A stretch of 64,000 bases of DNA from an uncultured virus (IMG/VR IMGVR_UViG_3300029305_011567) (Duplodnaviria; Heunggongvirae; Uroviricota; Caudoviricetes): the IMG/VR virus record IMGVR_UViG_3300029305_011567; one strand, given 5' to 3'. Position 1 is the stretch's first letter; the number at the start of each line of letters is the position of its first letter. Shown piece by piece: positions 23,245 through 43,510 of this stretch. Below the pieces are notes generated by a model. The model did not search any database. It worked only from the letters and a program-made list of their open reading frames with translations, and was not told the DNA's origin. Both the position numbers and the translations under genes were made by a program.

Positions 23245-23450
23245 TTGATTTTCCAGTGTATTTCGTGCATAATATAGTTATCTTCTATTTGTGTATTATG
23301 ACTACGCCGCCTCATAAGGCGCAATTTTGTGAATTCCTACTGGTTAGGTGGTGTTGGATAATGGAGGATAATTATAGTTTCACGGTTTGAATGATTTTAA
23401 GCACATGCATATGTATGTGCTTTTTTTATGCCCTGAAACTGGATTATAAA
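23245..23450 (+). promoter_or_regulatory. Repeated promoter/structured leader element, copy 1
   Basis: TTGATT-17-CATAAT; 23279-23450 identical to 43339-43510; ends in a terminator-like hairpin with T run. Confidence 0.88.
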
Positions 23451-23481
23451 AGAGAAAAACTTAGAAAAGGAGGTTGGTAGT

Positions 23482-25995
23482 GTGAAAGCAACACTAACAA
23501 CATGCCAGTTTTACGACTCGGTGTGTAAACAAAAAGGTGCCTATGAAAAGGCATTCTACAAGGAAAACCGTTACTCGGTTTTTAATGAGAAGCTGGCGTT
23601 GGTGTATGAACAGTTATTAAACGGTACATCAAAGCAGGACATTTTGAGTTCGTTTCGCGATGCAATCACCCGTTCTTATCAGGACGAGTGGTTTCCTTTT
23701 TATTGGGAAAAGGATGTTGCGGTTGAGGATGATGTCTTTTGCGTTGAACGGCTTCTTGAGTGGATAGGTTACCATTCCTATCAGATATTACGGGTGCATG
23801 TGCCCGTGCAGGCGATTCTTTGCGATACGCTTGTAAAAAGTGAGGTCAGCTTATTATTGCAGGAAGAAACAGGCAGATATGTTGCGGTAGTTGTCAGTAA
23901 CAAAAAGACCGATCGTTCCATTATGGGGAAATCGGTTCATACAGCCATTCTTTCTGACCTTGACTGCATGATTGCAAAACACTTTCTGGAGAGCCAGTAT
24001 GAGGATATCCAGATTGTAAAGGTGTATTTGCGTTGTGCGGACGAAACACAGGGTAATTTATTACCGTCCCTGATACGTGGCGCCACAAAAAAGCATCATG
24101 TGTTCTTTGCGGATTACGCTTCTTATTATGCCAATGGTGCATTTGATAAGGAGCGTTTTTTAGCAATGATGGAATCTGTGTTTGAAACACCACTTCCAAT
24201 GCCATGCTTTGAATGTAAGTATGGTGCGCTGTGTCATGTGATACAGGATGAGGAGGAAGTTGTTTCACAGGAGAAAGAAACTGCATATGTACTGCCACAG
24301 TACACAAAAGAACAGTTGCAGGCGGTAAATCACTTAAAAGGAGCTATGCGTGTATGCGCAGGTCCCGGCAGTGGAAAAACTGCAACGCTTGTGGGACGTA
24401 TTAAGCATTTGATAGACAGTGGCGTTGAGCCGGAGTTTATCTTGTGCATTACGTTTGCCAAGGAAGCGGCAAATGAACTGTTGTACCGTGTATCATCTTT
24501 TTGCTCAGAGGAGTCCATGCCGTATATCGCAACGCTTAATGCGCTTGGGTATGATATTATCCGGCAAAATGAGGATATCTTTGGTAAGCGGTCGTTGTTT
24601 ACCGAAGCAATGAAAATTGAACTCATTAAGAACCTGCATACGGTATACGACCAGCTTTCCGGCTTTAATTATGCCATGAAAGATGGTAAGAACGGTTTAT
24701 ACCGAATGATTAGCACAAGGCTGGATGCGTACTTTGCCGACGAAGAACATTTCTTTGAAAAATATCCGCAGCACTCCTCGGATTTTGTCGAGTTTGCAAA
24801 CGAATATGCGGACATTGTACGCGCAAGGGGGCTGATTACTTTTGACGAGCAGATTTCGCTTTGTAACCAGTTGTTTGCGGAATACCCGGAGATTGCAGAC
24901 GTATACAGCAGACGTTTTCAGTATGTCATGGTAGACGAATATCAGGATGTAAATGAACAACAGGCTTTGCTGTGTGATACGATTGCATCCCATGGTAATC
25001 TGATGGTTGTAGGCGATGATGACCAGTCAATTTATAAGTTCCGTGGTGGCAATAACCGTTTTTTGCTTGATTTTGAGAAACGATTTCCTGATGCTAAGTC
25101 AGTGATTCTTTCTAAAAATTTCCGATCCAGTAGTGGAATCGTGAAAGAAGCAGAAAAGGTAATTGCACAGAACGAACAGCGGATATTAAAAGATATCACT
25201 TGTGATAATGAAGGAAATGAACCGATCTATGTGCAGGGAACGGATGCGCGTGTCATTGATGGGCTGATTACCCAATGTATCAATGACGGTTGTTGCTTTG
25301 GTGACATTGCCATCCTGACAAGGAAAAATTCTACGTTGGAAGAACTTCATAAAAAACTGAACCATCCAACGGTGCTTGCAAAAAGATTTTTACGCTCGGA
25401 ACCACTGTTTCTGATTTTGAAATGTGTTCTGGGACTTTTTTTTAGCCAGTGCCGGGATGATGCAAGCTGGTATGTATTAGGTCAGCTTTTTAAGTTGCCT
25501 ATACCGGAAACAAATGTGTACGAGAACCTGTTGCGACAGGGTTATGCAGATTTGCTTGATTATGACTTCTACCAGAACTTATCTTTGGATGAGCCACTTG
25601 GGGAACTGTTGTCAAAACTCAGCAATATCTATGAACACATCGAACGTCTTGATTGTGTTACCTTAAACAATATGGTTGCCTGCATGTTTGGACATGAAGA
25701 AAGTAAAGCACTTGAGGTGCTTAACGAGCTTGTGTTAAAACAGCAGCTTCGTGGAATGAAGTTATATCGTGACTATCTGGATTATACCTATGAGTACGAT
25801 GACCAGACGAAAGTCCCTGTTGTGCAGGGAAACCGTGTGTTGCTTATTACATCACACGAAAGTAAGGGCAAAGAATATCCGGTAGTGATACTGGTAGAGC
25901 CTGATATGAACAAAAACACAGATGATGAGGACAGAAGAGTGCTTTACGTGTCCATGACACGGGCAAAGCAGACACTCTATATCTGTTCTGATTAG
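23482..25995 (+). CDS. UvrD/PcrA-like SF1 helicase with an N-terminal nuclease-like extension
   Basis: AGPGSGKT, VDEYQD, VGDDDQSIYKFRG, NFRS, TSHESKGKEY, YVSMTRAK motifs. Confidence 0.92.
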   Translation: MKATLTTCQFYDSVCKQKGAYEKAFYKENRYSVFNEKLALVYEQLLNGTSKQDILSSFRDAITRSYQDEWFPFYWEKDVAVEDDVFCVERLLEWIGYHSYQILRVHVPVQAILCDTLVKSEVSLLLQEETGRYVAVVVSNKKTDRSIMGKSVHTAILSDLDCMIAKHFLESQYEDIQIVKVYLRCADETQGNLLPSLIRGATKKHHVFFADYASYYANGAFDKERFLAMMESVFETPLPMPCFECKYGALCHVIQDEEEVVSQEKETAYVLPQYTKEQLQAVNHLKGAMRVCAGPGSGKTATLVGRIKHLIDSGVEPEFILCITFAKEAANELLYRVSSFCSEESMPYIATLNALGYDIIRQNEDIFGKRSLFTEAMKIELIKNLHTVYDQLSGFNYAMKDGKNGLYRMISTRLDAYFADEEHFFEKYPQHSSDFVEFANEYADIVRARGLITFDEQISLCNQLFAEYPEIADVYSRRFQYVMVDEYQDVNEQQALLCDTIASHGNLMVVGDDDQSIYKFRGGNNRFLLDFEKRFPDAKSVILSKNFRSSSGIVKEAEKVIAQNEQRILKDITCDNEGNEPIYVQGTDARVIDGLITQCINDGCCFGDIAILTRKNSTLEELHKKLNHPTVLAKRFLRSEPLFLILKCVLGLFFSQCRDDASWYVLGQLFKLPIPETNVYENLLRQGYADLLDYDFYQNLSLDEPLGELLSKLSNIYEHIERLDCVTLNNMVACMFGHEESKALEVLNELVLKQQLRGMKLYRDYLDYTYEYDDQTKVPVVQGNRVLLITSHESKGKEYPVVILVEPDMNKNTDDEDRRVLYVSMTRAKQTLYICSD

Positions 25996-26008
25996 AAGGA
26001 GGGGTTAT

Positions 26009-26917
26009 ATGATTCAGTTGCTTTATGGAAACGAACCCTACTGCATAGATTACCAGAAAAACAAAATGCTTAGTCAGATTGAGAATCAGGACGTGAATGT
26101 AAAACGTGGCGATTCCTTTACAGAAGATGTGATGAATTTTTTACATGCATCTTCTTTTTTTGGCGGTAAAAAGCTGGTGATACTTACAGTGGAGGAGTTA
26201 AAGGAATCTTGTATATCCAAGCTGTATCTTGATTATCTGGAAAATATCTCGCCGGTAAATGACCTTCTTATCATTGCTCGTAAGGTGGATGAAAGAAGCA
26301 CGTATTTTAAGGCGACAAAGAATGCCGGTATTGTCACAAAATGTGACAAACTGGAAGATATGAGTTTAGTTGACAAGATTCTGCTTCGTGAAGTTGGAAG
26401 ACTAAATGCCAACATTACGGCGGATGCGTTTGCGGAGTTTAAAAGGCGTATGAGCTATATGGATAATGAGGATGTAAACCTCTGCATGATGGTAAATACG
26501 TTAAAAAATCTTGCAGATGCTTCAAAAACGATTACGCCCCAGCTGGTAATAGCGATTGTTCCGGAGTGTTCCACAGAAAATATATTTGCGTTAGCGGCGC
26601 TGATCCGTAAGGGTGATTATAAAACAGCCCGCAAGCAGGTAAATCTTCTGATTGATGCTGATAAAGTAATGGGGACACTTGCAGCGGTACTTCGCGAGTT
26701 TCGTATTGCGTATAAGGCTTCGATGTTTGAGTTTAAGGACATCGGCATACGCTTTTTGGCATTCCGTAACCTTTCGCAAGACCAGACCTACGCGGGGCTT
26801 TGTATTTGTCAGAAAGGCATGGATGATATTAAGGCCGGCGTAATGACCGAGGATAATGCACTTGTCTATGTTGTGGAACAGCTGTGTGAGTTACTTGGCG
26901 CAGCAGACACAGAATAG
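26009..26917 (+). CDS. DNA polymerase III delta (HolA)-like protein
   Basis: LLYGNEPY.ID start, S.FFGGKKLVI, ENIFAL, D.DIKAG C-terminal motif. Confidence 0.8.
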   Translation: MIQLLYGNEPYCIDYQKNKMLSQIENQDVNVKRGDSFTEDVMNFLHASSFFGGKKLVILTVEELKESCISKLYLDYLENISPVNDLLIIARKVDERSTYFKATKNAGIVTKCDKLEDMSLVDKILLREVGRLNANITADAFAEFKRRMSYMDNEDVNLCMMVNTLKNLADASKTITPQLVIAIVPECSTENIFALAALIRKGDYKTARKQVNLLIDADKVMGTLAAVLREFRIAYKASMFEFKDIGIRFLAFRNLSQDQTYAGLCICQKGMDDIKAGVMTEDNALVYVVEQLCELLGAADTE

Positions 26918-26930
26918 GGGGTGTTGTTTT

Positions 26931-27440
26931 ATGGAGCAGGATGTATGGTTGCAGAAAGCAGATTCCAATGAGTTTAATCTGGGATTTCACCCGCAGTATT
27001 CGTTCTACGTCCTTAATGGGGATGTGAGAATCGGACATGTGCATGTCAGTGAAATGAAGGATGGTTATTTTGTGGAGTGGATTATGTTTCATACAGCAGA
27101 ACGTAAAAAGGGTTTTCTTCGGAAAGCCCTTTTAGCTGTAATGGACCATTTTCATGTGAACAAATTAAGGTTGGAATCCGATGTTTTGCATAAGGCGATG
27201 TATGTTCACTTGGGCGCGGTAGAGGTTGATTACGACAGCGTTCGTGCTGTCTCTTCATTACTTCTTATGCGTGTTGCCCTAACAAAAACATACCGAACAA
27301 AAACAGAAATGATTGATTACTTCAAGAAGCTGGCATATGCCTTTGAGGTAGAAGCACACCGTACCGGTAATAAAGTGGCAAAGGGTAAGGCGGAAGCCTA
27401 TGAACTGGCTGCTTTTGAACTGGAGCATAATTTGAAGTAA
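26931..27440 (+). CDS. GNAT-like acetyltransferase with C-terminal helical extension
   Basis: ER.KG.LR and MY.HLG motifs resemble the acetyl-CoA binding fold. Confidence 0.55.
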   Translation: MEQDVWLQKADSNEFNLGFHPQYSFYVLNGDVRIGHVHVSEMKDGYFVEWIMFHTAERKKGFLRKALLAVMDHFHVNKLRLESDVLHKAMYVHLGAVEVDYDSVRAVSSLLLMRVALTKTYRTKTEMIDYFKKLAYAFEVEAHRTGNKVAKGKAEAYELAAFELEHNLK

Positions 27441-27458
27441 TGGCAGTTACAAACGGAG

Positions 27459-27728
27459 GTGGGTATCATGGTGAATTGGTACAAGTTTATCTGCGGTGAA
27501 GCACAGTTGGAATGTCAGACCGTGGAAGAAGCGGAGTTGTTGCTTAAAATGTGTAAGGACAACAACATTCAGTGTGAACACGTTAAACCGGAGTATTTCA
27601 AAGAAGAACCTTATTGGTATGTAAGAGATGGATGGATTTTAGAAATCACGAAATATTTTGGGGATTCTGAGCAAATCTGTTCCACTTGGACCGTACAGGA
27701 TTTCATTGAAAATCATACCGGGGAATAA
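27459..27728 (+). CDS. Hypothetical protein
   Basis: RBS GGAGG; start could be 27468. Confidence 0.65.
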   Translation: MGIMVNWYKFICGEAQLECQTVEEAELLLKMCKDNNIQCEHVKPEYFKEEPYWYVRDGWILEITKYFGDSEQICSTWTVQDFIENHTGE

Positions 27729-27794
27729 TGACGCTACTGGATAGAACAGATTGAATTATAGAAAAAGTAAATTAAAAAATGGAGGAAAAGAAAC

Positions 27795-29027
27795 ATGGGA
27801 AAAAAATTAACAAATCAGGAAATCATTGAAAGAATCAAGGCGGATGAACGTTATTTTAAAAAGTTGCCTGCTGAACGTAAAGCGGATAAAGAAATTGTTA
27901 TGGTAGCCGTAAGACAGAATGGCGATGCTTTGTACTATGCCAGTGAAAAGCTGTGTGGCGATAAGGAAGTGGTGCTGGAAGCTGTAAAGCAGAATGGCGA
28001 TGCTTTGTACTATGCCAGTGAAAAGCTGTGTGGCGATAAGGAAGTGGTGCTGGAAGCTGTAAAGCAGAATGGCGATGCTTTGTACTATGCCAGTGAGGAG
28101 CTGCGTGGTGATAAGGAAGTGATGCTGGAAGCTGTAAAGCAGAATAGCAAAGCGCTTGCTTATGCCAGTGAAAAGCTGTGTGGCGATAAGGAAGTGGTGC
28201 TGGAAGCTGTAAAGCAGAATGGCGATGCTTTGTACTATGCCAGTGAGGAGCTGCATGGTGATAAGGAAGTGGTGCTGGAAGCTGTAAAGCAGAATGGCGA
28301 TGCGCTTGCTTATGCCAGTGAAAAGCTGTGTGGCGATAAGGAAGTGGTGCTGGAAGCTGTAAAGCAGAATGGCGATGCTTTGTACTATGCCCGTGAAGAA
28401 CTGCGTGGTGATAAGGAAGTGGTGCTGGAAGCTGTAAAGCAGAATGGCGATGCGCTTGCTTATGCCAGTGAAAAGCTGTGTGGCGATAAGGAAGTGGTGC
28501 TGGAAGCTGTAAAGCAGAACGGTAACGCACTTCGTTATGCCAGTGTAAAGCTGTGTGGCGATAAGGAAGTGGTGCTGGAAGCTGTAAAGCAGAACGGTAA
28601 CGCACTTCGTTATGCCAGTGTAAAGCTGTGTGGCGATAAGGAAGTGGTGCTGGAAGCTGTAAAGCAGAACGGTAACGCACTTCGTTATGCCAGTGTAAAG
28701 CTGCGTGGTGATAAGGAAGTGGTGCTGGAAGCTGTAAAGCAGAACGGTAACGCACTTCGTTATGCCAGTGTAAAGCTGCGTAGTGATAAGGAAGTGGTGC
28801 TGGAAGCTGTAAAGCAGAACGGTAACGCACTTCGTTATGCCAGTGTAAAGCTGCGTGGTGATAAGGAAGTGGTGCTGGAAGCTGTAAAGCAGAATGGTAA
28901 GGCTTTGCGCTATGCCAGTGATGAATTGCGTGGCGATATGGAAGTTGCGTGTGCGGCTACCAGTCAGTGTGCTGACGCGATAGCGTTTGTTGACCGCGAA
29001 TTATTGCTTCGTCTGCTTCGTGCCTAA
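27795..29027 (+). CDS. DUF4116-like helical repeat protein
   Basis: 14 tandem 25-aa units of type DKEVVLEAVKQNGxALxYASxxLxG plus N- and C-terminal caps. Confidence 0.9.
   Translation: MGKKLTNQEIIERIKADERYFKKLPAERKADKEIVMVAVRQNGDALYYASEKLCGDKEVVLEAVKQNGDALYYASEKLCGDKEVVLEAVKQNGDALYYASEELRGDKEVMLEAVKQNSKALAYASEKLCGDKEVVLEAVKQNGDALYYASEELHGDKEVVLEAVKQNGDALAYASEKLCGDKEVVLEAVKQNGDALYYAREELRGDKEVVLEAVKQNGDALAYASEKLCGDKEVVLEAVKQNGNALRYASVKLCGDKEVVLEAVKQNGNALRYASVKLCGDKEVVLEAVKQNGNALRYASVKLRGDKEVVLEAVKQNGNALRYASVKLRSDKEVVLEAVKQNGNALRYASVKLRGDKEVVLEAVKQNGKALRYASDELRGDMEVACAATSQCADAIAFVDRELLLRLLRA
27885..28934 (+). repeat. Coding tandem repeat, 14 x 75 bp
   Basis: GATAAGGAAGTGGTGCTGGAAGCTGTAAAGCAGAA recurs every 75 bp. 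Confidence 0.97.
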
Positions 29028-29058
29028 CATATCAGTGATGTAAACGGAGGTGGTTTTT

Positions 29059-29757
29059 ATGCATTTAAGAACAGATGGATATTATAATGCCGACAAAGGT
29101 AAATACTTTGTTTTGACTGAGAAGGGTAAAGCAGAGTGCGCAAGCTACCGTTCCAAGACAGTCGGTTCCCCGGTTGATGAGTATGATACCGAAGCTGTCC
29201 AGTGGGCAGTAGAGAAAGGATATGTCGTGGAAGTGAATATCCCTGACTGGATTGTAAAGGAAGGGTACGAAGTTGTGTACGACCACAAAGGGACTGTTAT
29301 TCATGTCGGAAATTGTATTGTATTTTCGGAAAGAGAGATTGCACAGCGGTATTTGGAACATTATCAGAGCCGTCCGTGGCACAATCACGTATTGTATATA
29401 CGTGATACCGTGTATGAGGGCAGGAAACTCAAGGATTGCCGTTTCTTAGATGGCAAACGGGTTTTCAATAAAGACTGGTACTATGGGCTGAATGCCTTGC
29501 GTGTCGGTGATTATGTGGAGGAAGAAATTGTGTCCGACCTGATGAACTGTATCATGCCTGCGTGTATGAGGAGTGATTGTTCACAGCTTGGGGAACCGTC
29601 TTATCAGCGCGTGGATGAAAACGGTAAGATCAGGTCAACGTATGGAACCTTTAAGAAAGTGGCTGACAATACATGGGGTATTGTGGTGACTGTTTCAGAG
29701 GGGAAAATACCATGCGTGGCGCGGAACTTCCTTATGTATAAAACCAAATGTAATTGA
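29059..29757 (+). CDS. Hypothetical protein, probably frameshifted near the 3' end
   Basis: Alternative frame from 29679 reads YCGDCFRGENTMRGAELPYV* and stops at 29741. Confidence 0.65.
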   Translation: MHLRTDGYYNADKGKYFVLTEKGKAECASYRSKTVGSPVDEYDTEAVQWAVEKGYVVEVNIPDWIVKEGYEVVYDHKGTVIHVGNCIVFSEREIAQRYLEHYQSRPWHNHVLYIRDTVYEGRKLKDCRFLDGKRVFNKDWYYGLNALRVGDYVEEEIVSDLMNCIMPACMRSDCSQLGEPSYQRVDENGKIRSTYGTFKKVADNTWGIVVTVSEGKIPCVARNFLMYKTKCN

Positions 29758-29762
29758 TGTTA

Positions 29763-29795
29763 ACAAAGAGCATGGCTACTTGCCATGCTCTTTGT
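29763..29795 (+). terminator. Hairpin, possible terminator
   Basis: ACAAAGAGCATGGC-TACTT-GCCATGCTCTTTGT. Confidence 0.55.
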
Positions 29796-29818
29796 AGAAG
29801 TGGAGGAAAAGAAAAGTG

Positions 29819-30244
29819 ATGCAGATTCAGGTTGGTGATACTGTGTGTTTTCAGTTGTCCCAGAGTGAGCGCAGGATTAGCGGAACGGTTGCAGAAGTGA
29901 ATAATTTGACGTTGAGAGTGGAGTATGAAGGACCCTCTTTTAATGGCTGGTCACATATCACAAGGGAATCTATTATTTCCGTCAATGGCAAAGAAGTGAA
30001 ACAGAAGGCTAACCGTAAGCCGGTACAGACGCAGTTGCAGAATGTAAACTGTTACTGTTATGAAGCGTCGGACCAGTGGCATTGGAGTACACGCAGAATA
30101 CTCATTGTTACAACGGATGAAAGTAAAGCCATTGCTTATATGGATGATTTTTGTAAAAGACACAGTGATGAAACGGAAACGTGGTCATATTGTGCATCTG
30201 ATGTACGAAATTCACAGGGATTAATGGCAAAAGTGATTTTATAA
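29819..30244 (+). CDS. Hypothetical protein (SH3-like N-terminus)
   Basis: IQVGDTV.F pattern; RBS GGAGG. Confidence 0.65.
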   Translation: MQIQVGDTVCFQLSQSERRISGTVAEVNNLTLRVEYEGPSFNGWSHITRESIISVNGKEVKQKANRKPVQTQLQNVNCYCYEASDQWHWSTRRILIVTTDESKAIAYMDDFCKRHSDETETWSYCASDVRNSQGLMAKVIL

Positions 30245-30261
30245 GAAGGAGGAATAGGCAT

Positions 30262-31317
30262 ATGATTATACATAAAACCTATGATTATTTATCGAATACA
30301 GACCGTATTCTTATCTCACAGGACTTGGCAGAAGTATCGGTTCATAGCATACGCTTTGACAGATATTATACAGAGAGTGAGAAACAGGTAAACTTGCAGG
30401 CGGCAGAAATGATGAGCAAGGAGGAATACTCTGCTCATTGCAAAGGCGTATCAGAACTGTATAAAGGAAAGATGGAAACCATTCTGAAAGAATTTGTTGG
30501 CAAGTACAACATTCATCAGGTGTCAGAAGAAACATCAACCATGGTGCATTATCACAGTGATTGGGATTTGTTCTACGGCACCAATGAAGCAGGTGATTTC
30601 TTTACACTTACTTTTAATAAGAAAAGAACGCCTGCTGCCAATTTGAAACTTCTGGATGAGCTTCTTGATATTGTTTCCAATCTGCATGTGAAGAATGTGC
30701 AGTGTATTGTTCAGTATACAAGCATAGATCATGTAGAAGAAATCAATCAGCGTGCAAAAGAAATATATCTGACGCTGGAAAACAAATGGGTGTCGTATCG
30801 TGGAGACACGGGCCGCATCCGTATTGTTGACAGTAAAGATGGTTGCGATTTGTATGGTTTCTCTAAAAAAGGTGCGCATAAAAATTACATAACAGTGCCA
30901 CCTTCCGCACTTGTAGTAATGGGGATGTCAAAAACAGAACGCCCCGGTGTGATTGTCTTAAAGAAATCCGGATGGCAGGAGATTCATTACCAAAGACGTG
31001 AGTTTAAGCATGTCAGCGGAAGTAGCGGACTGAGTTTTGTCATGAAAGACGGAGAACCTGTTTTTCAGTGTGATAAGGCAAAGGAAAACTATGAGTACGC
31101 ACTTGCACATCCGGAAGAGTATAAGGATGTTGGTGTGAAACCCCATATTGAGAAATATTGGGAAAACACAACCATTCTTTGCAAATGCGGGAATGAGCTT
31201 GAGTTGCGTAACGAACTGCATGGTGCGTGTAGATGCCCGAACTGCGGTAAGTGGTATAACATGTCCGGACAGGAATTATTACCGCCCGATGAGTGGATTG
31301 AGGAGGTGGGTGTATGA
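30262..31317 (+). CDS. Hypothetical protein with C-terminal Zn ribbon
   Basis: CKCG...CPNCG.WYN.SGQ.L motif. Confidence 0.75.
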   Translation: MIIHKTYDYLSNTDRILISQDLAEVSVHSIRFDRYYTESEKQVNLQAAEMMSKEEYSAHCKGVSELYKGKMETILKEFVGKYNIHQVSEETSTMVHYHSDWDLFYGTNEAGDFFTLTFNKKRTPAANLKLLDELLDIVSNLHVKNVQCIVQYTSIDHVEEINQRAKEIYLTLENKWVSYRGDTGRIRIVDSKDGCDLYGFSKKGAHKNYITVPPSALVVMGMSKTERPGVIVLKKSGWQEIHYQRREFKHVSGSSGLSFVMKDGEPVFQCDKAKENYEYALAHPEEYKDVGVKPHIEKYWENTTILCKCGNELELRNELHGACRCPNCGKWYNMSGQELLPPDEWIEEVGV

Positions 31318-32108: not shown

Positions 32109-32170
32109 CAAGGGGAAATGGGTATGAAAATACAGAAAGCCTATGGTTATTTAGAGAAGGAGGTGACAGC

Positions 32171-32365: not shown

Positions 32366-32372
32366 GTTGTGA

Positions 32373-32618: not shown

Positions 32619-32627
32619 CAAAGAGGA

Positions 32628-33494: not shown

Positions 33495-33532
33495 CCTGCA
33501 CCTTTTCTTTGCCATAAGAAGGAGGTGTTTTT

Positions 33533-34006: not shown

Positions 34007-34021
34007 AAGGAGGAATGGAAT

Positions 34022-34519: not shown

Positions 34520-34563
34520 TTGTAAATGCGCTAAAAATGCTTAATAAATAGGAGGATAAAAGC

Positions 34564-35043: not shown

Positions 35044-35045
35044 GC

Positions 35046-35456: not shown

Positions 35457-35467
35457 GAGGGCTGCTT

Positions 35468-35875: not shown

Positions 35876-35925
35876 AAGTGTGTGGGGTGGTTATCTTAGG
35901 ATAATCATTCCCACACACTTTTTTT
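35876..35925 (+). terminator. Intrinsic terminator ending operon A
   Basis: AAGTGTGTGGG...CCCACACACTT + T run. Confidence 0.85.
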
Positions 35926-36082
35926 GCTTTATAGGAAAGACCTTGTCACACTAACGTGTGAAAGGCTTTCCCATAAAGCAAAACGCTCCGCGGGATGCGC
36001 ACTCGCGCGTACAAGGTAATTGTCGCTAACGCGCCCGCGCTCGGTGCGAGAGTCCGTAAACGGACTCTTTGTTCTTTTATAC

Positions 36083-36276
36083 TTGCATTTTTTTGGGATA
36101 TCGTGCATAATATAAGTATCTTCTATTTGTGTATTATGACTACGCCGCCCCATAAGGCGCAATTTTGAAAATTCCTACTGGTTAGGTGGTGTTGGATAAT
36201 GGAGGGTAATGATAGTTTCACGGTTTGAATGGTTGCGCATACATACGTATGTGCTTTTTTTGTGCCCTGAAACTAT
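36083..36276 (+). promoter_or_regulatory. Repeated promoter/structured leader element, copy 2 (diverged)
   Basis: TTGCAT-17-CATAAT; near-identical core; altered terminator stem that still pairs. Confidence 0.88.
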
Positions 36277-36353
36277 TTTTATATATACAAAATAAAATAA
36301 TAAAAGGAGGTGTAGCGTATGAAAGGTACGCAAACAAAGGAAGTGATGTGCGT

Positions 36354-36623
36354 ATGACAGTCACTTGTAACAAAGGCTTAGATATGGTGTATAAGGGAAA
36401 GATGCCTTATGCGGAGTTTCTAAGTAAACTGGTGGGGTTATACAGCCAGTACACGGATATGTCTTTGGAAGAGTTTCTGCGCACAGTCTGCGTTATGGAT
36501 CTGCCGATTGGGCAGCAGGCAAGACTCTGTGCGGATATCAAAAAGCGTATTGAGGGAGGAAACACGATATACTTTAACGAAGGAAAAAGATATCCTGTTT
36601 TCTCAGAAAGGAGCGACTTATGA
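36354..36623 (+). CDS. Hypothetical protein
   Basis: ATG 36354 overlaps the stop of a 12-codon upstream ORF. Confidence 0.6.
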   Translation: MTVTCNKGLDMVYKGKMPYAEFLSKLVGLYSQYTDMSLEEFLRTVCVMDLPIGQQARLCADIKKRIEGGNTIYFNEGKRYPVFSERSDL

Positions 36624-36928
36624 AAGATGCTCTCAATGTAAGAACTTTTCTAAAGGGGCTTGATAAAGCAAGGGCGTGTAGTGAACAGGATTCGATTCAT
36701 ATTGACAGCAAGCAGATGGCAATGCTGTATGAACTGATATCGAATAAAGAAATCCCGTCGTGTACCAGTGATGAGATTCTGGAAATGACACACTACGTTG
36801 GTGCTTTATGCGGCTCCATCCATACGCATGAGGAAAAATGGACGAGTGAAACGTGGGGATATGGAAACATGGCGTTTTACAAAGAACTCAGAGATATTCC
36901 TTCTGCCACAAAGAGAAGATTGTTTTAA
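36620..36928 (+). CDS. Hypothetical protein
   Basis: RBS AAGGAG; ATGA overlap. Confidence 0.7.
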   Translation: MKDALNVRTFLKGLDKARACSEQDSIHIDSKQMAMLYELISNKEIPSCTSDEILEMTHYVGALCGSIHTHEEKWTSETWGYGNMAFYKELRDIPSATKRRLF

Positions 36929-36943
36929 AAGGAGGTATGTATC

Positions 36944-37639
36944 ATGGCAAGAGCTGTGAAAAAAGAAAAAGCGCCCCTGTTTTCATGTGATTTCATGCCG
37001 GATAAGGTAGGAAATACCCTTGTAAATATCAATTACATGGGAAAGCAAAGACAGCTGCGTAAAACCGTGACTTTAGATGCATTTATGAAGCTTCTGGTTC
37101 AGTCACATCAGAAAACACCGGTTTATCACAAAATCGGACAGCTACCAAAAGGATTTGTAAACGGAGCATACGGGACAGATGGCAGTTTTAAAGCCGTCAT
37201 TCATGTGCCGGGAAAAAGACGATGCCTGAATTTTTTTAATTCAAGGCATTTTTTTATTCCCTTTCCGGATTTATATTTCTATTTCGAGGTAAGCAAGGAA
37301 GGTAATGTAATAAAAAAGAAGTGCTATGCGCATGATGGTATAAGTGAAACCTTATTTCATTATCCTTTTGGAAATGTTGATAATGGTGGAAGTATTTGCA
37401 TGGGTAATATTTTGTGTAAGGCACATACCATGCTGGAACTGGAACGGATTGTGGATGATTTCTTTATGTCGGTTACGAATAACGACTATGCAAATCAACA
37501 TTTACCGAAACAGTTTGAGAATCAGTTACAGCTGCTTGAAGCACTGGAAAAGCGCAAAGGTAACACATTTCCAAAAGCGTATCTGATTGATAATGGAGAG
37601 TCGGTTAAATCCCTTGTGGAAGAACTGAGATTTTTCTAA
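36944..37639 (+). CDS. Prokaryotic E2-like protein (PRTRC protein B-like)
   Basis: IPFP.L.F and LFHYPFGNV...G.ICMGN with the putative catalytic Cys. Confidence 0.85.
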   Translation: MARAVKKEKAPLFSCDFMPDKVGNTLVNINYMGKQRQLRKTVTLDAFMKLLVQSHQKTPVYHKIGQLPKGFVNGAYGTDGSFKAVIHVPGKRRCLNFFNSRHFFIPFPDLYFYFEVSKEGNVIKKKCYAHDGISETLFHYPFGNVDNGGSICMGNILCKAHTMLELERIVDDFFMSVTNNDYANQHLPKQFENQLQLLEALEKRKGNTFPKAYLIDNGESVKSLVEELRFF

Positions 37640-37681
37640 AGAACAATAATAACTAATAACAAGAAAATGGAGGAAAGAATT

Positions 37682-39349
37682 ATGAGTAATGTAAATGGAC
37701 AGGTATCAATGTTTGGACTTTTTGGAGATTTATTTGACGGATATAATCCGGAAGATGAAAAGAAAGAACAGAAGAAGGAAAAGGCAAAAAAGCCCGCAGC
37801 AAAGAAAGAGCAGAAAGACAAGACGGTGAATGTAACTCTGCCGGTGACAGTCTATGGCAAGAGCTTTATCATTGAAAGCTTTGGTGAAGGTACCATGACT
37901 CTTGATGAGCTCAAAGTAAAACTGGCTACCGAGCGGTACGCAGAAATCGGTACAGATGCAATGGTATTGCAGTATCAGGCGGATAAGGCGAGAGTCTATG
38001 TCGGCATGAAGCGCGGATTAAAGCCGACTGATTTTGGCGATGAGGAAGAAGCCTATGCGGTTGATGCAGCTTGGAAGATTTGTGATGGTGGAAAGGTGTA
38101 TCAGGTAGAACAGGAAGAGGATGAGTCTTTGATGTGTCTTGATAATGTCTGGAAACGCTTTACAGAGTGCTTCCCTGAGTATGCAACCTATCTTCCGTAC
38201 TGCGATGAAACAGCTTGTGTAATTGTGCCGATTCCGGATGAAAGTAAACTGTTGAAGATTCAGAATGCGGCACCGGGACAGTGCTGCGTATTTAATGCCT
38301 TTGGCAAGAGCATTACCGTGGAAAACGGAATTGATGCCGGTGTAATGCGCGGACTTGACGGCATGGATGGAAAACCGCTTGAGGTGCAGTATTCCGTTTA
38401 TGAAAACGGTGTGCATGATTATGAACTGTGTATCTATTCCACAGCCGGAAGTGCTTCTTCATCCGTTCATGCTGGAAGTGGTGCAAAGAAAGAAACAAAA
38501 GAGAAGTATAAACTTCCTCTGACCTGTTTCATGGCAACATGGGGTGCTACCTATGAACTGACAAGCAGTGACTTCGATGGTAAGGAAGAAGTGACGCAGG
38601 ATGATATCAAGAAGCACTTTACACCGATGTATTCCATCTTTGCGGATGAAAAGCGTAAGGCTTCTTATATCTATGTGAAAGAAACCAATACGCTTAGTAT
38701 TGCGTTCTTTTCCGGAACAAAGGGTAGTGCTTGTACGCTGGCGGAATATGAGGAAGAAGCAGAAAAAGCACTTTCTTATGGCCCGTTTGAACTGATCCGC
38801 TCTGAAAAAGAGTTGCAGAAAGTGTCACAGCTTGATAATTACCTTGGCATTTATGTGCCGGAGGATGTAAAGGAACCGAGCCAGCGGGTAGATGTGCTTC
38901 CGCTTGGCGTGTTTCGTAGCATTCTTGGTGACAGAATGAAAGCCGTGTGCGTTGCTTTTGACAGCAAGGTGCCGAAAATGAGTAAGGCGATGTTTGAAAA
39001 CATCGTCTCTTTTTTTCGCAACAACATGCCGTATGAAGCGATTGTTCAGGTGTGGTATGATAGAAAGCAGCAGAGCTTTCATATGTGTACGCCGTCCAGT
39101 GAATTAAAGAGCCGAAGTGTCATTTCCTACGAAATGCCCGTACTGTTAAATTCCATACTTGTGATTACGATTCATAGTCACAATTCAATGCCGGCATTCT
39201 TTTCATCAACGGACAACCGTGATGAATGTTATCCCGGACTGTTTGGTGTGATTGGTAATCTGGATAGGGAAGAACCGACGATGGCGTTTCGTTGTGGCAA
39301 TGAGGGTGTCTTTGGCACTTTGCAGTACACGGACCTGTTTGAAGCGTAA
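37682..39349 (+). CDS. JAB/MPN metalloprotease (PRTRC protein A-like) with a long N-terminal region containing putative ubiquitin-like domains
   Basis: E...IHSHNSMPAFFSSTDNRDE JAB motif; internal GTKG at 38714-38725. Confidence 0.85.
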   Translation: MSNVNGQVSMFGLFGDLFDGYNPEDEKKEQKKEKAKKPAAKKEQKDKTVNVTLPVTVYGKSFIIESFGEGTMTLDELKVKLATERYAEIGTDAMVLQYQADKARVYVGMKRGLKPTDFGDEEEAYAVDAAWKICDGGKVYQVEQEEDESLMCLDNVWKRFTECFPEYATYLPYCDETACVIVPIPDESKLLKIQNAAPGQCCVFNAFGKSITVENGIDAGVMRGLDGMDGKPLEVQYSVYENGVHDYELCIYSTAGSASSSVHAGSGAKKETKEKYKLPLTCFMATWGATYELTSSDFDGKEEVTQDDIKKHFTPMYSIFADEKRKASYIYVKETNTLSIAFFSGTKGSACTLAEYEEEAEKALSYGPFELIRSEKELQKVSQLDNYLGIYVPEDVKEPSQRVDVLPLGVFRSILGDRMKAVCVAFDSKVPKMSKAMFENIVSFFRNNMPYEAIVQVWYDRKQQSFHMCTPSSELKSRSVISYEMPVLLNSILVITIHSHNSMPAFFSSTDNRDECYPGLFGVIGNLDREEPTMAFRCGNEGVFGTLQYTDLFEA

Positions 39350-39364
39350 ATGGAGGTGGTTTTT

Positions 39365-40144
39365 ATGGCAACCATTAACGGTAAGACCGTCAAAGAGTGC
39401 TGTAAGCAGCTTGCGCGGTACAAGATGCCACAGAAAAAGCTGTACGGGAAATATCCATACTACCGTATCTCGGAGTATCGGGAGCGTCTGGATGAGGTGC
39501 TTGGTGTAGACCACTATCATGTGACCTACTCACCACCGCAGATTATTCAGCTTGGTAGTGGACAGGAAATGCTTTGCGTGAACTGTCGGATTACGGTGCT
39601 GGATGATGAATACAACCCTATTTTTTATAAAGAGGGTTGTGGTTCTAAGGAACTCCAGTATACGAAAGAAACCGGAAGGCTTGATGGGATTAGTAATGTT
39701 GCATATTCAGCGTCTACATCCGCATTTAAAAATGCATGTAAGAACTTCTTTATGTTTGGGGATAAGTCCAATGATGATATATATGATGAAGAAGGTGTCA
39801 TACCTTTTTCGGAAACGCATCAGACCATGGATAAAACAAACAGACAGCCGGATAATAAGGCTGTGGCCGAACGTATTTGTTTTGTGCTGACGGATAAACC
39901 GGAAATCGTGCGAGAAGATGCGCATACCCAAAAGCCGGTTTATAAAGCCGTGGCACAGATCGCAGAAGGCGATGTGATGCACATTGAAAAATGTGATATT
40001 ATCTTTTATCCGAACCAGTATAAAAACCATGTAGCATTGATTAACGAACTGTGCAGTATGGAAAAACCTAAGAAACGTGTATTTATGGTAACAGCAACCG
40101 CATCAAAAAATGAACGAATGCAGTACATTTTTAAGGGTGTGTAA
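39365..40144 (+). CDS. Rad52/Rad22 (Sak)-like single-strand annealing protein
   Basis: Y.....RERLDEVLG...Y, V.CRITV, KEG.G, A.SA.TSAFK.AC..F.MFG motifs. Confidence 0.75.
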   Translation: MATINGKTVKECCKQLARYKMPQKKLYGKYPYYRISEYRERLDEVLGVDHYHVTYSPPQIIQLGSGQEMLCVNCRITVLDDEYNPIFYKEGCGSKELQYTKETGRLDGISNVAYSASTSAFKNACKNFFMFGDKSNDDIYDEEGVIPFSETHQTMDKTNRQPDNKAVAERICFVLTDKPEIVREDAHTQKPVYKAVAQIAEGDVMHIEKCDIIFYPNQYKNHVALINELCSMEKPKKRVFMVTATASKNERMQYIFKGV

Positions 40145-40157
40145 GGGGGTGTGTTAT

Positions 40158-40553
40158 ATGGAAGATAATAACGCGCTTTTGGCTGATTATCAGGCAATCG
40201 TAAGCCATTTTTGTGTACTGCTTGCGCAGCTTGCCGCTGTTACTAAGCAGATAAAAGATGGAAAAACCGTTGAGCCTGCCTACTTGGATGCACTGACCGA
40301 TAAGGTACTTAGGTATCAGGATGCATTGTTGGTCGTGAAAGACCGTCTGGAGTATTCCGACGGTCTTTCTTTTTTGGAAGACTGTAAATTCCGTGGTTTT
40401 GTATTACAGGATGGTCAGATTGAAGGGGATACCGATAATCTGATTCGTTTTGTAACGCCATGGGTAATGGAATTTCCGAATGATTCAACCAACAATTATA
40501 AATTTGAAGTAGGTTCGTTACTGATTGCACTTGCTCATGAGCAGGTATTGTAG
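40158..40553 (+). CDS. Hypothetical protein
   Basis: RBS AAGGGGG; within the operon. Confidence 0.7.
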   Translation: MEDNNALLADYQAIVSHFCVLLAQLAAVTKQIKDGKTVEPAYLDALTDKVLRYQDALLVVKDRLEYSDGLSFLEDCKFRGFVLQDGQIEGDTDNLIRFVTPWVMEFPNDSTNNYKFEVGSLLIALAHEQVL

Positions 40554-40570
40554 ATAGAAGGAGGTAAAAC

Positions 40571-41326
40571 ATGAAATACCAGAAAGGTGATGTTTTTTTT
40601 GATGTGATTGTAATAGGTGCTGGAGGAACCGGCACCTATTTCATAAAAGAAGCAGGACGGTTTATCTCGTCCTTAAAAAATAAAAAGGTTGTACGTTCTT
40701 TTGCAATCGTGGATGCAGATACGGTTGAAAAAAAGAACCTGACAAGGCAGTGTTTCATGGAGGAAGACATCGGCGCGTACAAGGCTGACGTGATGGCAAA
40801 TGCTTTGCATGAGCTGTTTGAATTGGATGCCGTTGCTATAACGCGCTTTATTGATTCCGTAAAGGATATCAAGCAGATTCTTCCTGCGGATGAAAAAGAG
40901 AAGCTGTGTATCCCCGTGATTATCGGTTGTGTGGATAATCATGCTTGCCGTTTGGTATGCGAGAGATTCTTTCATGAGAGCGCAAATTGCATTTATTACG
41001 ATTCTGCAAATGAATTTGATAACGGGGAAGTGGTATATGCGGTGAAGTTGAATAATTCCGTTATTGCACCGCCAAGAAGCCATTATTTTCCTGAAATCAA
41101 GAAGGCTAAAAAGAAGCGTAGTGAAATGTCTTGCACGGAGCTGAATGCGGTTGCACCACAACATATTTTAACGAATATGTGTGCGGGTATGGCTCTGCTT
41201 TCCGGTTTTATACCTCTTTTGGAAAAGTTTCAATTAAAAAGGGGGATGTGTATGTTTAATCCGTTTCTAAATCAGATGCAGTTTATTCCATACATGTCAG
41301 ATAAACAGGGAGGTGAGGAGTCATGA
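40571..41326 (+). CDS. ThiF/E1-like adenylyltransferase (PRTRC ThiF-like)
   Basis: IGAGGTG, D.DTVE.KNL.RQ.F, IGCVDN and SC motifs. Confidence 0.92.
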   Translation: MKYQKGDVFFDVIVIGAGGTGTYFIKEAGRFISSLKNKKVVRSFAIVDADTVEKKNLTRQCFMEEDIGAYKADVMANALHELFELDAVAITRFIDSVKDIKQILPADEKEKLCIPVIIGCVDNHACRLVCERFFHESANCIYYDSANEFDNGEVVYAVKLNNSVIAPPRSHYFPEIKKAKKKRSEMSCTELNAVAPQHILTNMCAGMALLSGFIPLLEKFQLKRGMCMFNPFLNQMQFIPYMSDKQGGEES

Positions 41327-42369
41327 ATGCAAAAGAAAAGCGGCTTTTGGAAATCAATGATAAAGCCGTAGCATACGGCAGGTTTTCAACGGATGTTTCC
41401 CGCTGGCTTCATGATATGGTTGAGATTGATTATTCCTTTGAACATTGTTTTAGTGGTGATATGTGTGGTGTTTTGGCAAGGTTAAACCTTGCATTCCTAC
41501 ACGCTATGGCAAAGGAGTATGGACTTGACTATGCTGTTGATATGAGAACGGATTCATACTTTGCAAAGGGAAAGTGGAAAGAGACGATTACTGGTAAGAA
41601 ACTCCTTATGGGAGATGATATGGAATCGTTTGGCCCATGGAATTTTGATAACGAGTACAACAACTACCAGACAGAAATCGAATATCTTATGTATTCCTTT
41701 TCGCCTTTTGCAGCATGTAAAACGTTCCCGCTTTTTATGGAATATAGTGAGGCTGTTGAACTGTGTTGTGTTGAACAGGGTATGGATGAAGAGGATTTCA
41801 ACGAAGACTTACCGGAGCATCAGGAATTGGTAAAGCGGTATGCCTACGAAGCATTGACAGAAAACTTCTTTGATGAAGAACTTTCAGCAGAACACATGAT
41901 TATGGAAAGCATTGATATGACCGGGGACTGGTATGTTGATGTGGTGTGCAGCAAAAACACACTGATTCCGTACTTTAAAAAGTGGTACCAGAAACAGAAA
42001 AAGGTGGATGTATTTTCAGCCAAGTTGAATTTCATTATAGGGTCTGAAATTATTCATCCGAACAATCTGGAACTTTATGGTAAAAACATTTCTGAACAAA
42101 CAACTTTTGCTCATTATTGTGGTGGCATTGTTGGTTCAAATTGTGATACCGGTGATTGCCTTTGTTGCGAAAACTATAATCCGGCGTATATTGTTCAGCA
42201 GTCGATGATCTGTGAGAGTATTTTGTATCTGGATGAAAAGTATCATTTTTTGCCTGATAAAAAGACTCTCCGGGTTGCACATTCTGACTGGAAGCCGGCT
42301 GAAATGCGTAAACCGTTAATGGTACCGAATAATGCTTCGGATTCTTTATTAAAAGAACTGGGAATATAA
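41323..42369 (+). CDS. Acidic hypothetical protein with a Cys-rich C-terminal segment
   Basis: ATGA overlap with the E1 gene; HYCGG...NCDTGDCLCC. Confidence 0.75.
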   Translation: MNAKEKRLLEINDKAVAYGRFSTDVSRWLHDMVEIDYSFEHCFSGDMCGVLARLNLAFLHAMAKEYGLDYAVDMRTDSYFAKGKWKETITGKKLLMGDDMESFGPWNFDNEYNNYQTEIEYLMYSFSPFAACKTFPLFMEYSEAVELCCVEQGMDEEDFNEDLPEHQELVKRYAYEALTENFFDEELSAEHMIMESIDMTGDWYVDVVCSKNTLIPYFKKWYQKQKKVDVFSAKLNFIIGSEIIHPNNLELYGKNISEQTTFAHYCGGIVGSNCDTGDCLCCENYNPAYIVQQSMICESILYLDEKYHFLPDKKTLRVAHSDWKPAEMRKPLMVPNNASDSLLKELGI

Positions 42370-42389
42370 TATTTGTAAAACGGAATGTG

Positions 42390-42427
42390 AGAGATGGGTA
42401 CAGTGGAAGCTGTACCCATCTCTTTTT
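42390..42427 (+). terminator. Intrinsic terminator ending operon B
   Basis: AGAGATGGGTACAG...CTGTACCCATCTCT + T run. Confidence 0.85.
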
Positions 42428-42445
42428 GTATAGCAATCTTTTAAT

Positions 42446-43164
42446 AAACCACCTGCTATGCAGGTGTGTCCGCGGACAGCTTTAGCTTCAAGCAAAAACC
42501 TCCTTTGCTATAATAAGTGTAGGTTCGCCAACCGCACAAAAATAGCAAAGGAGGTTGTCCCCAATGGACATGAATAGTTTATCACATTCAAAATGGGAGT
42601 GTAAATATCATGTGGTGTTTGCACCAAAGTTTCGACGAAAGGTTATATATGGGAAGTTGAAACAGGATATAGCGAATATTTTAAGTATGCTATGCAAAAG
42701 GAAAGGAGTGGAAATTATTGAAGCCGAAGTGTGTCCAGACCATGTGCACATGCTGGTAAGAATTCCACCGAGTATGAGTGTCTCGAGTTTTATGGGGTAT
42801 TTGAAAGGGAAAAGTACGCTTATGATATTCGAAAGACATGCCAATCTGAAATACAAGTATGGAAACCGCCATTTCTGGTGTAGAGGATATTATGTGGATA
42901 CAGTAGGTAAAAATGCGAAGAAAACCCAAGAGTATATCCAAAACCAACTAAAAGAAGATTGGGAATACGATCAAATGACACTAAAAGAGTATATTGACCC
43001 GTTTACGGGTGAGCCAGTAAAGCAAAGCAAGTAAAAAGAGCCCTTTAGGGCTCTGCAAGAAAATGATGTTGCGGCTGGCGAGCCTTTCGATGAGTCTTTA
43101 GACTCCAGTGCCGGAAACAGACCCTTATAGGGTCAGAGCAAACCACCGGCTGAGCCGGTGGTGC
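42446..43164 (+). mobile_element. IS200-group element (IS200/IS605 family, tnpA only); ends approximate
   Basis: Related subterminal hairpins AAACCACCTGCTATGCAGGTG and AAACCACCGGCTGAGCCGGTGG flank tnpA. Confidence 0.88.
42564..43034 (+). CDS. tnpA: IS200/IS605 Y1 (HUH) transposase
   Basis: CKYHVVFAPKFRRK, DHVHML (HUH), FWCRGYYVDTVG, EYIQNQ (catalytic Tyr). Confidence 0.97.
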   Translation: MDMNSLSHSKWECKYHVVFAPKFRRKVIYGKLKQDIANILSMLCKRKGVEIIEAEVCPDHVHMLVRIPPSMSVSSFMGYLKGKSTLMIFERHANLKYKYGNRHFWCRGYYVDTVGKNAKKTQEYIQNQLKEDWEYDQMTLKEYIDPFTGEPVKQSK

Positions 43165-43304
43165 TGATTTGCGATGCCATCATTACAGTTGGTTTTGCGC
43201 GTAGGGTTTTCGGTGTGGCCAGTGCCGGATATAAATACATATACTACGCAAATGACGAACCTATACACAAATACGGGAAAATACGCCAACGGAGCAAAAA
43301 ATGC

Positions 43305-43510
43305 TTGCAAATTATTGAATTATAGGTCATAATATAAGTATCTTCTATTTGTGTATTATGACTACGCCGCCTCATAAGGCGCAATTTTGTGAATTCCTAC
43401 TGGTTAGGTGGTGTTGGATAATGGAGGATAATTATAGTTTCACGGTTTGAATGATTTTAAGCACATGCATATGTATGTGCTTTTTTTATGCCCTGAAACT
43501 GGATTATAAA
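43305..43510 (+). promoter_or_regulatory. Repeated promoter/structured leader element, copy 3
   Basis: TTGCAA-17-CATAAT; 43339-43510 identical to 23279-23450. Confidence 0.88.

Follow-up and report, generated by a model that had tools for sequence, protein, structure and literature searches.

The closest known concept for the repeated leader described here is that of the establishment-gene regulatory sequences (EGeRS1 and EGeRS2) of the pLS20-family plasmids of Bacillus (PMC6294495, PMC8708921). The leader lies in a 64,000-nt stretch of DNA recorded as an uncultured virus (IMG/VR IMGVR_UViG_3300029305_011567; hereafter the window, meaning the whole stretch analysed), which is clearly DNA of a conjugative element of a Firmicute, and it stands there in three copies, each a promoter followed by a structured leader at the head of a long operon. 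Its RNA structure is conserved across a family of elements and has no entry in an RNA catalogue.

EGeRS occur in four to five copies per conjugative element, ahead of establishment or anti-restriction operons. EGeRS1 blocks transcription arriving from upstream; it is 420-750 bp long, rich in guanine plus cytosine (GC; 51% versus 38% for the plasmid) and without a sigma-A promoter, and its mechanism is described as unknown. EGeRS2 holds a strong promoter and dual TTATCCC operators, which are bound by the ribbon-helix-helix (RHH) repressor Reg576 (PMC6294495, PMC8708921). Like EGeRS, the cassette in the window is a conserved non-coding repeat just 5' of the ribosome-binding site (RBS) of separate, putative establishment operons, and it shares with EGeRS1 a multi-copy position before the operon RBS, in three copies here and likewise in relatives. 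Membership nevertheless fails on the defining features. The cassette measures ~185 bp with a GC content of 0.36-0.40, as opposed to the 420-750 bp, high GC and many inverted repeats of EGeRS1, and a TTGxxx-17 bp-CATAAT promoter is present in all three copies, with a TATAAT version in two relatives. EGeRS sequences are more than 60% similar to one another in PMC8708921, whereas blastn of the repeat found no match among 72,556 plasmid records, a set in which the presence of pLS20 was not checked. No dual TTATCCCnnTTATCCC heptamer, the EGeRS2 operator, occurs anywhere in the window, and no RHH family match that could represent a Reg576-type repressor was obtained among the window open reading frames (ORFs) scanned. 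For this and the later gene searches, 61 window ORFs were scanned by family profiles, the window being part of the element only.

A second point of comparison is cATT, the zipper-type attenuator of the pLS20 conjugation operon, which is single-copy and has the antiterminator form as its default. In its description, a weak upstream stem-loop uses its 3' strand to pair with the terminator's 5' arm, lengthening the long stem into the default antiterminator, and 339 of 423 unique plasmid sequences are predicted to have a terminator of this kind upstream of conAn1 (PMC13401043). The cassette resembles cATT in having a long stem and a terminator before the first Shine-Dalgarno (SD) sequence. It differs in that its 5' helix, called P1 below, starts at the predicted +1 and leaves no upstream partner, in the lack of a stable antiterminator fold, and in an extra helix that encloses the terminator rather than competing with it.

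Phages offer functional analogies. In the PR'-6S RNA-tR' unit of lambda, a constitutive promoter makes a short terminated RNA before a long operon until Q antiterminates, and HK022 carries two copies of put (putL and putR), one behind each early promoter. The cassette is unlike both, with no Q-like or N-like gene among the window ORFs, no sequence or Rfam similarity, and a Gram-positive conjugative element as its host. Q is named in PMC11658703, and put in PMC8191782 and PMC11658703. The latter two sources also describe the cis-acting antiterminator RNAs canT of Tn916 (341-452 nt) and conAn2 of pLS20 (260-600 nt), conAn2 working with the protein ConAn1 (PMC11658703, PMC8191782). As presented there, canT and conAn2 are, like the cassette, structured RNAs of Gram-positive conjugative elements, and they govern read-through of intrinsic terminators in long operons, as the cassette is proposed to do; unlike it, they are single-copy and have no built-in terminator. 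Finally, pLS20 has TerR, characterised in PMC10325885 as a long-stem terminator resistant to antitermination.

Three copies of a promoter and leader

A repeat search of the window returned a three-member family at 23268-23450 (the reference copy), 36106-36288 and 43328-43510, each of 183 nt, and so confirmed the three copies that a first-pass annotation, made from the sequence alone, had reported. Similarity between the copies runs from the -10 box CATAAT to just past the outer helix described below and has sharp borders. The -35 hexamers, the 17-bp spacers and the RBS regions differ among the copies, the -10 box being the only promoter element inside the conserved block. The promoter pattern TTG(ATT/CAT/CAA)-17 bp-CATAAT proved correct for all three, all on the + strand: TTGATT-17 bp-CATAAT at 23245-23273 (copy 1), TTGCAT-17 bp-CATAAT at 36083-36111 (copy 2) and TTGCAA-17 bp-CATAAT at 43305-43333 (copy 3). 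Copies 1 and 3 passed a consensus promoter scan at 9/12. The identity of some 170 nt claimed for these two copies extends over 172 nt (23279-23450 and 43339-43510), and they differ in the -35 box, the spacer and two bases directly 3' of the -10 box. Thirteen substitutions and a 4-nt deletion set copy 2 apart from copy 1, and its aligned 3' end is shorter. On the + strand of the window, a covariance model made from all three copies found those three alone, at 181-204 bits (copy 2 leader, 180.8 bits; copy 3 leader, 204 bits). The leaders have a GC content of 0.36-0.40 versus 0.42 for the window, in a unit of ~185 bp.

The leader RNA transcribed from the + strand folds into two domains. The first, P1, is formed by pairing of the 5'-terminal pyrimidine tract UAUCUUCUAUU with the SD-like AAUGGAGGAUA ~85 nt downstream, and it encloses the inner helix CGCCGCC/GGUGGUG. 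The second is a terminator hairpin of 8-10 bp with 7 U, set inside an outer helix AGUUUCACGG.../...CCCUGAAACU, which reads AGUUUCA.GG/CC.UGAAACU in the window copies. In copy 1, P1 occupies 23279-23370 and has many G-U pairs, and the outer helix surrounds the terminator at 23375-23441 (hairpin 23399-23422, U run 23421-23427). All three parts of the copy 2 leader lie at 36116-36276, with the hairpin at 36235-36254 followed by 7 U and a second U run after the outer helix. The copy 3 leader spans 43338-43506, is the same as copy 1 from 43339 and has its terminator hairpin at 43459-43482. The folds thus bear out two features that had been read from the letters, namely the terminator-like hairpin with its T run (7 U in the RNA) and the helix AGTTTCA.GG/CC.TGAAACT around it. 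A third, a CGCC..GGCG hairpin, can be found, but the minimum-energy fold instead pairs CGCCGCC with GGUGGUG in the long 5' helix.

The + strand RNA of copy 1 has a minimum free energy of -54.3 kcal/mol (z -5.55), and none of 200 shuffles was equally stable; copy 2 reaches -50.3 kcal/mol (z -3.44). The - strand RNA of copy 1 comes to -31.2 kcal/mol (z -2.66), while with DNA parameters the two strands of copy 1 are alike (-18.4 and -18.5 kcal/mol). P1 does not form, or is largely lost, in the - strand RNA and DNA folds. The fold is thus specific to strand and chemistry because of its many G-U pairs.

Among the window copies themselves, the paired columns of copies 1 and 2 hold nine substitutions, seven of which preserve pairing through wobble; the other two are adjacent and disrupt a small apical hairpin. 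The terminator stem of copy 2, said in the first-pass annotation to change sequence and still pair, does so by one-sided wobble changes (A-U to G-U and G-U to A-U), and because the changes are of this kind only, copy 2 gives less support for compensatory change than was first claimed.

Conservation in related elements

Relatives of the leader were sought around the DUF6094 methylase encoded behind copy 3. This protein has 359 relatives at E <=1e-10, the closest being two at 99% and 80% identity (Logan contigs) and the others at <=55%. Loci around methylase relatives were taken from genomes (17) and metagenomes (80). In the three best genome loci, from Butyrivibrio proteoclasticus, an Acetatifactor metagenome-assembled genome (MAG) and a Lachnospiraceae MAG, the methylase gene is preceded by a promoter, a leader of 140-190 nt and a terminator just before the RBS, and two of the three promoters are TTGCAA-17 bp-TATAAT (10/12). 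Searching each genome with its own leader gave four copies on one 105-kb contig and a 70% copy on another contig in the Acetatifactor MAG, four copies in the Lachnospiraceae MAG, and three clear and two weaker copies in Butyrivibrio. Among the 69 metagenomic methylase loci with at least 200 nt upstream, nine have a further leader copy within 10 kb.

The genes behind these copies correspond between elements. A UvrD-like helicase follows a leader in the window and in all three relatives (32-37% identity to the window protein), and the methylase with SNF2 does so in all four elements (46-50%). An E2 gene stands behind window copy 2 and one Acetatifactor copy (30%), and an SSB gene, whose product is 78% identical to the window SSB, behind one copy of the Lachnospiraceae MAG. 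Since orthologous genes follow the copies, the multi-copy layout is older than the divergence of these elements. The repeated cassette is therefore more than a recent duplication, and its role as a shared operon head holds at orthologous positions in relatives.

All groups of leaders have one architecture in common: a promoter, a U/C-rich tract at the 5' end that pairs with a purine-rich, SD-like one, inner hairpins that vary, a linker rich in AU (frequently UUAUAG or UAUAA), the outer helix, a terminator hairpin with its U run, and the RBS. Across 15 leaders from four elements, the + strand RNA folds better than the - strand RNA by a mean of 18 kcal/mol, the margin being 12-38 kcal/mol in 12 of them, as would be predicted of a structure in the sense transcript. 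Each fold contains 2-18 G-U pairs, up to 30% of all pairs, and the 5' domain is stable independently of the terminator. Blocking the terminator's 3' arm leaves, in 15/15 leaders, a best alternative fold that is less stable by 6.2-11.2 kcal/mol, and no antiterminator fold is shared among the 15. From a canonical terminator without a favourable alternative fold, we infer that termination is the default. The outer helix requires sequence 3' of the U run, so that only read-through RNA can form it. A U run also follows this helix in window copy 2 and the Acetatifactor copies, giving a nested second stop with a long stem.

Compensatory change is measurable in the Butyrivibrio group (five sequences, 67% mean column identity), where both partners have changed in 8 of 25 consensus pairs. 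Paired cells make up 88.8% of this alignment versus 29.5-53.6% with slid partners, and the covariation score is 0.40 versus 0.03-0.14 for slid controls, a value reached by none of 500 shuffles. A second group of leaders has compensatory changes in 4 of 45 pairs. In one Acetatifactor copy, before the UvrD-like gene (L021), the inner terminator hairpin has been swapped for an unrelated sequence that forms a perfect 12-bp hairpin, while the outer helix and both U runs are unchanged. In 52 of the 69 metagenomic methylase loci, the 15-125 nt before the start contain a hairpin with a T run, compared with 100 of 696 ORFs of at least 100 amino acids that have an RBS, and with 81 of 417 where an upstream gap of 150 nt is required, baselines that are crude in that they include the methylase genes themselves and spurious ORFs. 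In 41 distinct leaders, not all of them independent sequences, pairing between the 22 nt that precede the hairpin and the 30 nt that follow averages -9.7 kcal/mol when the flanks are cognate versus -5.7 kcal/mol when they are not (n=1640; Mann-Whitney p 5e-11), and -8 kcal/mol or better is reached by 59% of cognate and 20% of non-cognate flank pairs. Structural conservation in homologues beyond duplication had been set beforehand as a check on the proposal, and it is found both in the compensatory changes of the relatives and in the outer helix of these 41 leaders.

The lack of a known RNA family, as already supposed when the element was first described, was borne out by Rfam 15, which gave no match in the whole window at gathering thresholds; relaxed thresholds gave six matches to copy 1, all at E >=1.1 and far under gathering scores (best 19.3 bits). 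No match was obtained by blastn of the leader against a phage collection, by exact search of viral, genome and metagenome contigs with a 23-mer and a 26-mer of the leader, or with the three-copy covariance model on 15 related loci. When the window leader is compared with its nearest metagenomic look-alikes (L048-L051), the terminator region alone aligns, with 1 of 23 pairs compensatory. No description of the cassette was found in the literature collection searched, and a literature search for DUF6094 returned one unrelated Pseudomonas comparative-genomics paper only.

A short motif, TTGC-N19-21-ATAAT-N5-TATCWTYT, was tried as a family signature in 401 Lachnospiraceae genomes and rejected. It gave 36 matches in 30 genomes versus 12 for the reversed control; in the 30 loci examined, the leader architecture was present in the seed genome's locus only, and one other locus had a weak 5-bp hairpin with a T run.

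Leader copies share 63-100% identity within an element and 55-68% across elements at orthologous positions, the shuffled baseline being 58.4 +/- 2.7%. Copies that are alike within elements and near the baseline between them argue for concerted evolution. Homogenisation within an element would be expected if all copies must fit one co-evolving factor. Clustering of copies by element is common to this cassette and, in PMC8708921, EGeRS1.

Proposed default termination and competing readings

The reading that we favour, with slightly better than even confidence, is that the cassette is a terminator-gated leader co-regulating an establishment regulon, in which termination is the default and the gate is opened by an element-specific factor. 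Each copy would be a promoter-proximal regulatory cassette acting as RNA. A sigma-A-type promoter would start a leader of ~150-170 nt, whose 5' end would form the long imperfect helix P1 by pairing of its pyrimidine tract with the SD-like GGAGG. Most transcripts would stop by default at the intrinsic terminator (8-10 bp stem and 7 U) that is held in the outer helix just 5' of the RBS of the first gene. A factor of the element, protein or RNA, that recognises the shared leader would then let RNA polymerase read on, and the three operons (UvrD/HolA, E2/JAB/E1 and methylase/SNF2) would thereby be switched together as one establishment-type regulon. The outer helix probably shapes the read-through RNA, acting as a second long-stem stop if a U run comes after it, or as a hairpin for processing or stabilisation. 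Transcript start, termination, trans factor and timing are what we infer in this scheme; as judged from sequence, the proposal that a gated terminator jointly controls an early or establishment regulon is well motivated. No terminator separates copy 1 from the adhesin operon, which ends at 23125, so the leader terminator would also stop the upstream operon.

Several observations weigh against this reading. There are no compensatory double changes among the three window copies, and the promoter of copy 2 is weak by consensus and fell below the threshold of the simple scan. The three Butyrivibrio leaders have no strand asymmetry of folding. Few relatives exist in the window leader's own lineage, as judged by the lack of blastn and exact core-word matches. 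No known antiterminator or RNA-binding family was matched among the 61 window ORFs, nor any NusG or KOW domain, as LoaP-type antitermination by a NusG paralogue of the element would require; scans of the 27 unannotated ORFs with PHROGs and NCBIfam gave nothing regulator-like, and in the three relatives the one housekeeping NusG per genome is encoded on contigs without leaders. The concerted evolution of the copies could also stem from gene conversion between repeats without selection. Lastly, start site, termination and read-through are all predicted. Assembled contigs of four sequencing runs (three of DNA and one guessed to be RNA) break at the leader copies, and no transcript starts or ends are visible in them.

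More tentatively, and as a possibility rather than a probability, the cassette may represent a third, RNA-based class of establishment-regulon control, in which, for each conjugative element of this gut Clostridia lineage, a private leader serves as a lock and a co-evolving key encoded by the element opens all copies at once. Under this proposal every early operon would carry a nested double terminator, and the key would be an unrecognised antitermination protein or RNA. The outer helix formed after read-through would belong to the mechanism, for example as a second stop that withstands antitermination or as a site where processing commits the message. If true, the proposal would explain homogenisation of the leaders within an element together with their complete divergence between elements.

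Among the alternatives, the one that survives best is a cis-acting RNA antiterminator resembling HK022 put or Tn916 canT, in which P1 would bind RNA polymerase and no factor of the element would be needed. The built-in terminator would then stop unmodified polymerases, internal terminators would be bypassed, and long stems would end the operons. The copies do lie directly behind the promoters of long operons, as putL and putR do, and their 5' domain is stable without the terminator. Operon 1 contains internal terminator-like sites at 33480-33502 and 34135-34155, and stems of 16-20 bp close other operons, recalling the long-stem TerR of pLS20 (PMC10325885). These internal sites and long-stem ends are compatible, on our analysis, with processive antitermination halted by long-stem terminators. 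If a cis antiterminator acted constitutively right in front of its own strong terminator, however, that terminator would be nearly pointless, and polymerases arriving from upstream would also transcribe P1, so that there would be no insulation. Moreover, homogenisation better fits a diverging trans partner than the host's conserved RNA polymerase, and no Rfam family similarity was seen at E <1. We therefore think a cis antiterminator unlikely.

The null reading dispenses with any switch or factor and takes the cassette for a strong promoter that has been duplicated along with a stabilising 5' hairpin and a leaky, damping terminator, the copies being kept uniform by gene conversion. The 5'-terminal helix beginning at the predicted +1 suits such a stabiliser, repeats on one replicon do homogenise, and no regulator was found among the scanned window ORFs or in the relatives. 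This explanation is quite unlikely in our view, given that the terminator and outer helix survive complete sequence turnover with compensatory changes, and that the layout is kept at orthologous operon heads whose proteins share 30-50% identity, which is much constraint for a damper.

The first-pass annotation had offered either an RNA-level attenuator or a small RNA (sRNA) of ~150 nt, and of the two the attenuator fits better. A trans-acting sRNA would be the terminated leader itself, made from three promoters, with downstream expression as mere leakage. The leader has the classic outline of one: its 5' stem is stable, its middle (the 5' arm of the outer helix) is single-stranded, and its terminator has a U tail. 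Moreover, three or more identical copies would give a high dose. Yet in four elements the copies all stand at orthologous operon heads, 20-70 nt ahead of the RBS of a long operon. These operons have no other apparent promoter, the + strand promoter-like sites within them numbering 35 versus 43.6 expected from shuffles and thus showing no excess. No partner was found for the single-stranded arm other than the 3' arm of its own leader. A stand-alone sRNA is decidedly improbable on these grounds.

A single-stranded DNA element on the transferred strand, whether a Frpo-type promoter or an ssi/sso priming site, is very improbable. The genes downstream (SSB in a relative, the methylase and the helicases) are typical leading-region cargo, and a - strand promoter-like site, TTAAAA-18 bp-TATAAT (10/12), lies inside copies 1 and 3. 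Copy 2 lacks that site, as do 11 of the 12 copies scanned in relatives. In Frpo/ssi the promoter boxes are formed within a hairpin of the transferred single strand, whereas in the cassette the -35 and -10 boxes lie outside, upstream of, the hairpins. The DNA folds are weak and equal on both strands, and G-U pairs, up to 30% of the total, would be G-T or A-C mismatches in DNA. Frpo/ssi, which had been named as a precedent, is therefore a poor one, with its promoter placement unlike that of the cassette and the cassette's fold specific to RNA. Antisense-RNA attenuation was rejected as a general mechanism, the - strand promoter-like site being present in 3 of 15 copies (copies 1 and 3 and one from Butyrivibrio).

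Leader-peptide attenuation, in which the SD-like GGAGG would drive a mini-ORF across the terminator and the ribosome would melt the hairpin, is barely credible: the SD-like motif does lie 30-35 nt upstream of the terminator in all groups, and in copy 2 an AUG after it opens a 28-codon frame across the terminator, but in copies 1 and 3 a canonical start codon is missing at this point and no frame stays open as far as the hairpin, all three frames of one Acetatifactor copy are interrupted by stops, the frames are not conserved in the 8 of 14 leaders examined, and a 30-codon ORF from the ATG at 23299 is cut by a TGA in copy 2.

Operons behind the leaders and their surroundings

The large ORFs of the window are all on the + strand and include, besides the operons headed by the leaders, genes for SSB, giant SpaA-type surface proteins, PrgI, a sortase and large ORFs of a type IV secretion system (T4SS) region. 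The copy 1 operon (23482-35866, + strand) encodes a UvrD-like helicase, a HolA-like protein (DNA_pol3_delta), a DUF4116 repeat protein, RadC/JAB, DUF3846 and unknowns, and ends at a terminator at 36048-36069. That of copy 2 (36319-42369, + strand) begins with a 12-codon mini-ORF and two small unknown proteins, continues with Prok-E2, JAB, ThiF/E1 and unknowns, and ends at a terminator with a 16-bp stem (42389-42424). The third (43536-51683, + strand) encodes the DUF6094 methyltransferase, a SNF2/ResIII helicase, a 420-amino-acid unknown, a PAPS-reductase-like protein and LPD16, and closes with a 20-bp stem (51682-51727). Together the three measure about 27 kb, and their genes serve DNA handling and, probably, anti-defence. 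Most of the first assignment of their contents stood (UvrD, HolA-like, Prok-E2, JAB, ThiF/E1, the DUF6094 methylase and the SNF2/ResIII helicase); the exception is the supposed clamp at 48169-49431, for which no family match was found in Pfam, PHROGs or NCBIfam.

The mini-ORF lies 3' of copy 2 at 36319-36357, has its own RBS, and its stop overlaps the next start (ATGA), which suggests translational coupling on sequence grounds. The E2/JAB/E1 module (36944-41326) is a ubiquitin-like conjugation system carried as cargo of a conjugative element behind a leader copy, and the 30% identical E2 behind a leader of the Acetatifactor element lies at L020:2029-2688. Within operon 1, thirteen tandem 75-nt repeats of 71-91% identity (27810-29009) encode the DUF4116 repeat protein, and a 263-nt direct repeat of 76% identity occurs at 31864-32126 and 32374-32636, 510 nt apart.

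Long-stem terminators close operons at 7016-7057 (18 bp) as well as at 42389-42424 and 51682-51727, and they recall the antitermination-resistant TerR of pLS20 (PMC10325885). A second repeated control module, of 77 nt and 84% identity, lies at 7054-7130 and 51725-51801, each copy directly 3' of a long-stem terminator. It comprises a TTGAAC-16 bp-TAGAAT promoter and TGAAC-type direct repeats, and its copies head the giant adhesin operon and the T4SS operon. With this module at two other operon heads, the element seems to have two separate regulons with different repeated heads.

Two stretches near the leaders stand out in sequencing depth. An IS200-like Y1 transposase (42555-43034; bins 42368-43249) is inserted between the E2/JAB/E1 operon and copy 3, and its depth is 10-1900 versus about 2-10 in the flanks in four metagenome runs, with many rearranged joints; it is probably a multi-copy insertion sequence common to many organisms. 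A GC-rich non-coding stretch (35950-36047) directly 5' of the operon 1 terminator may be a widely repeated short element, the contig depth of bin 35900-36193 being 104-122 in two DNA runs versus about 3-14 nearby.

The cassette bears on how conjugative elements of Gram-positive gut bacteria time their establishment and anti-defence genes. The anatomy of the cassette is simple, which makes a regulon-wide antitermination switch, the factor that would open it and a private lock-and-key code directly testable, and at least one version of the cassette is present in a cultured Butyrivibrio isolate. The cassette is also a practical marker with which to delimit early or establishment regulons, including the E2/JAB/E1 module, on uncharacterised mobile elements.

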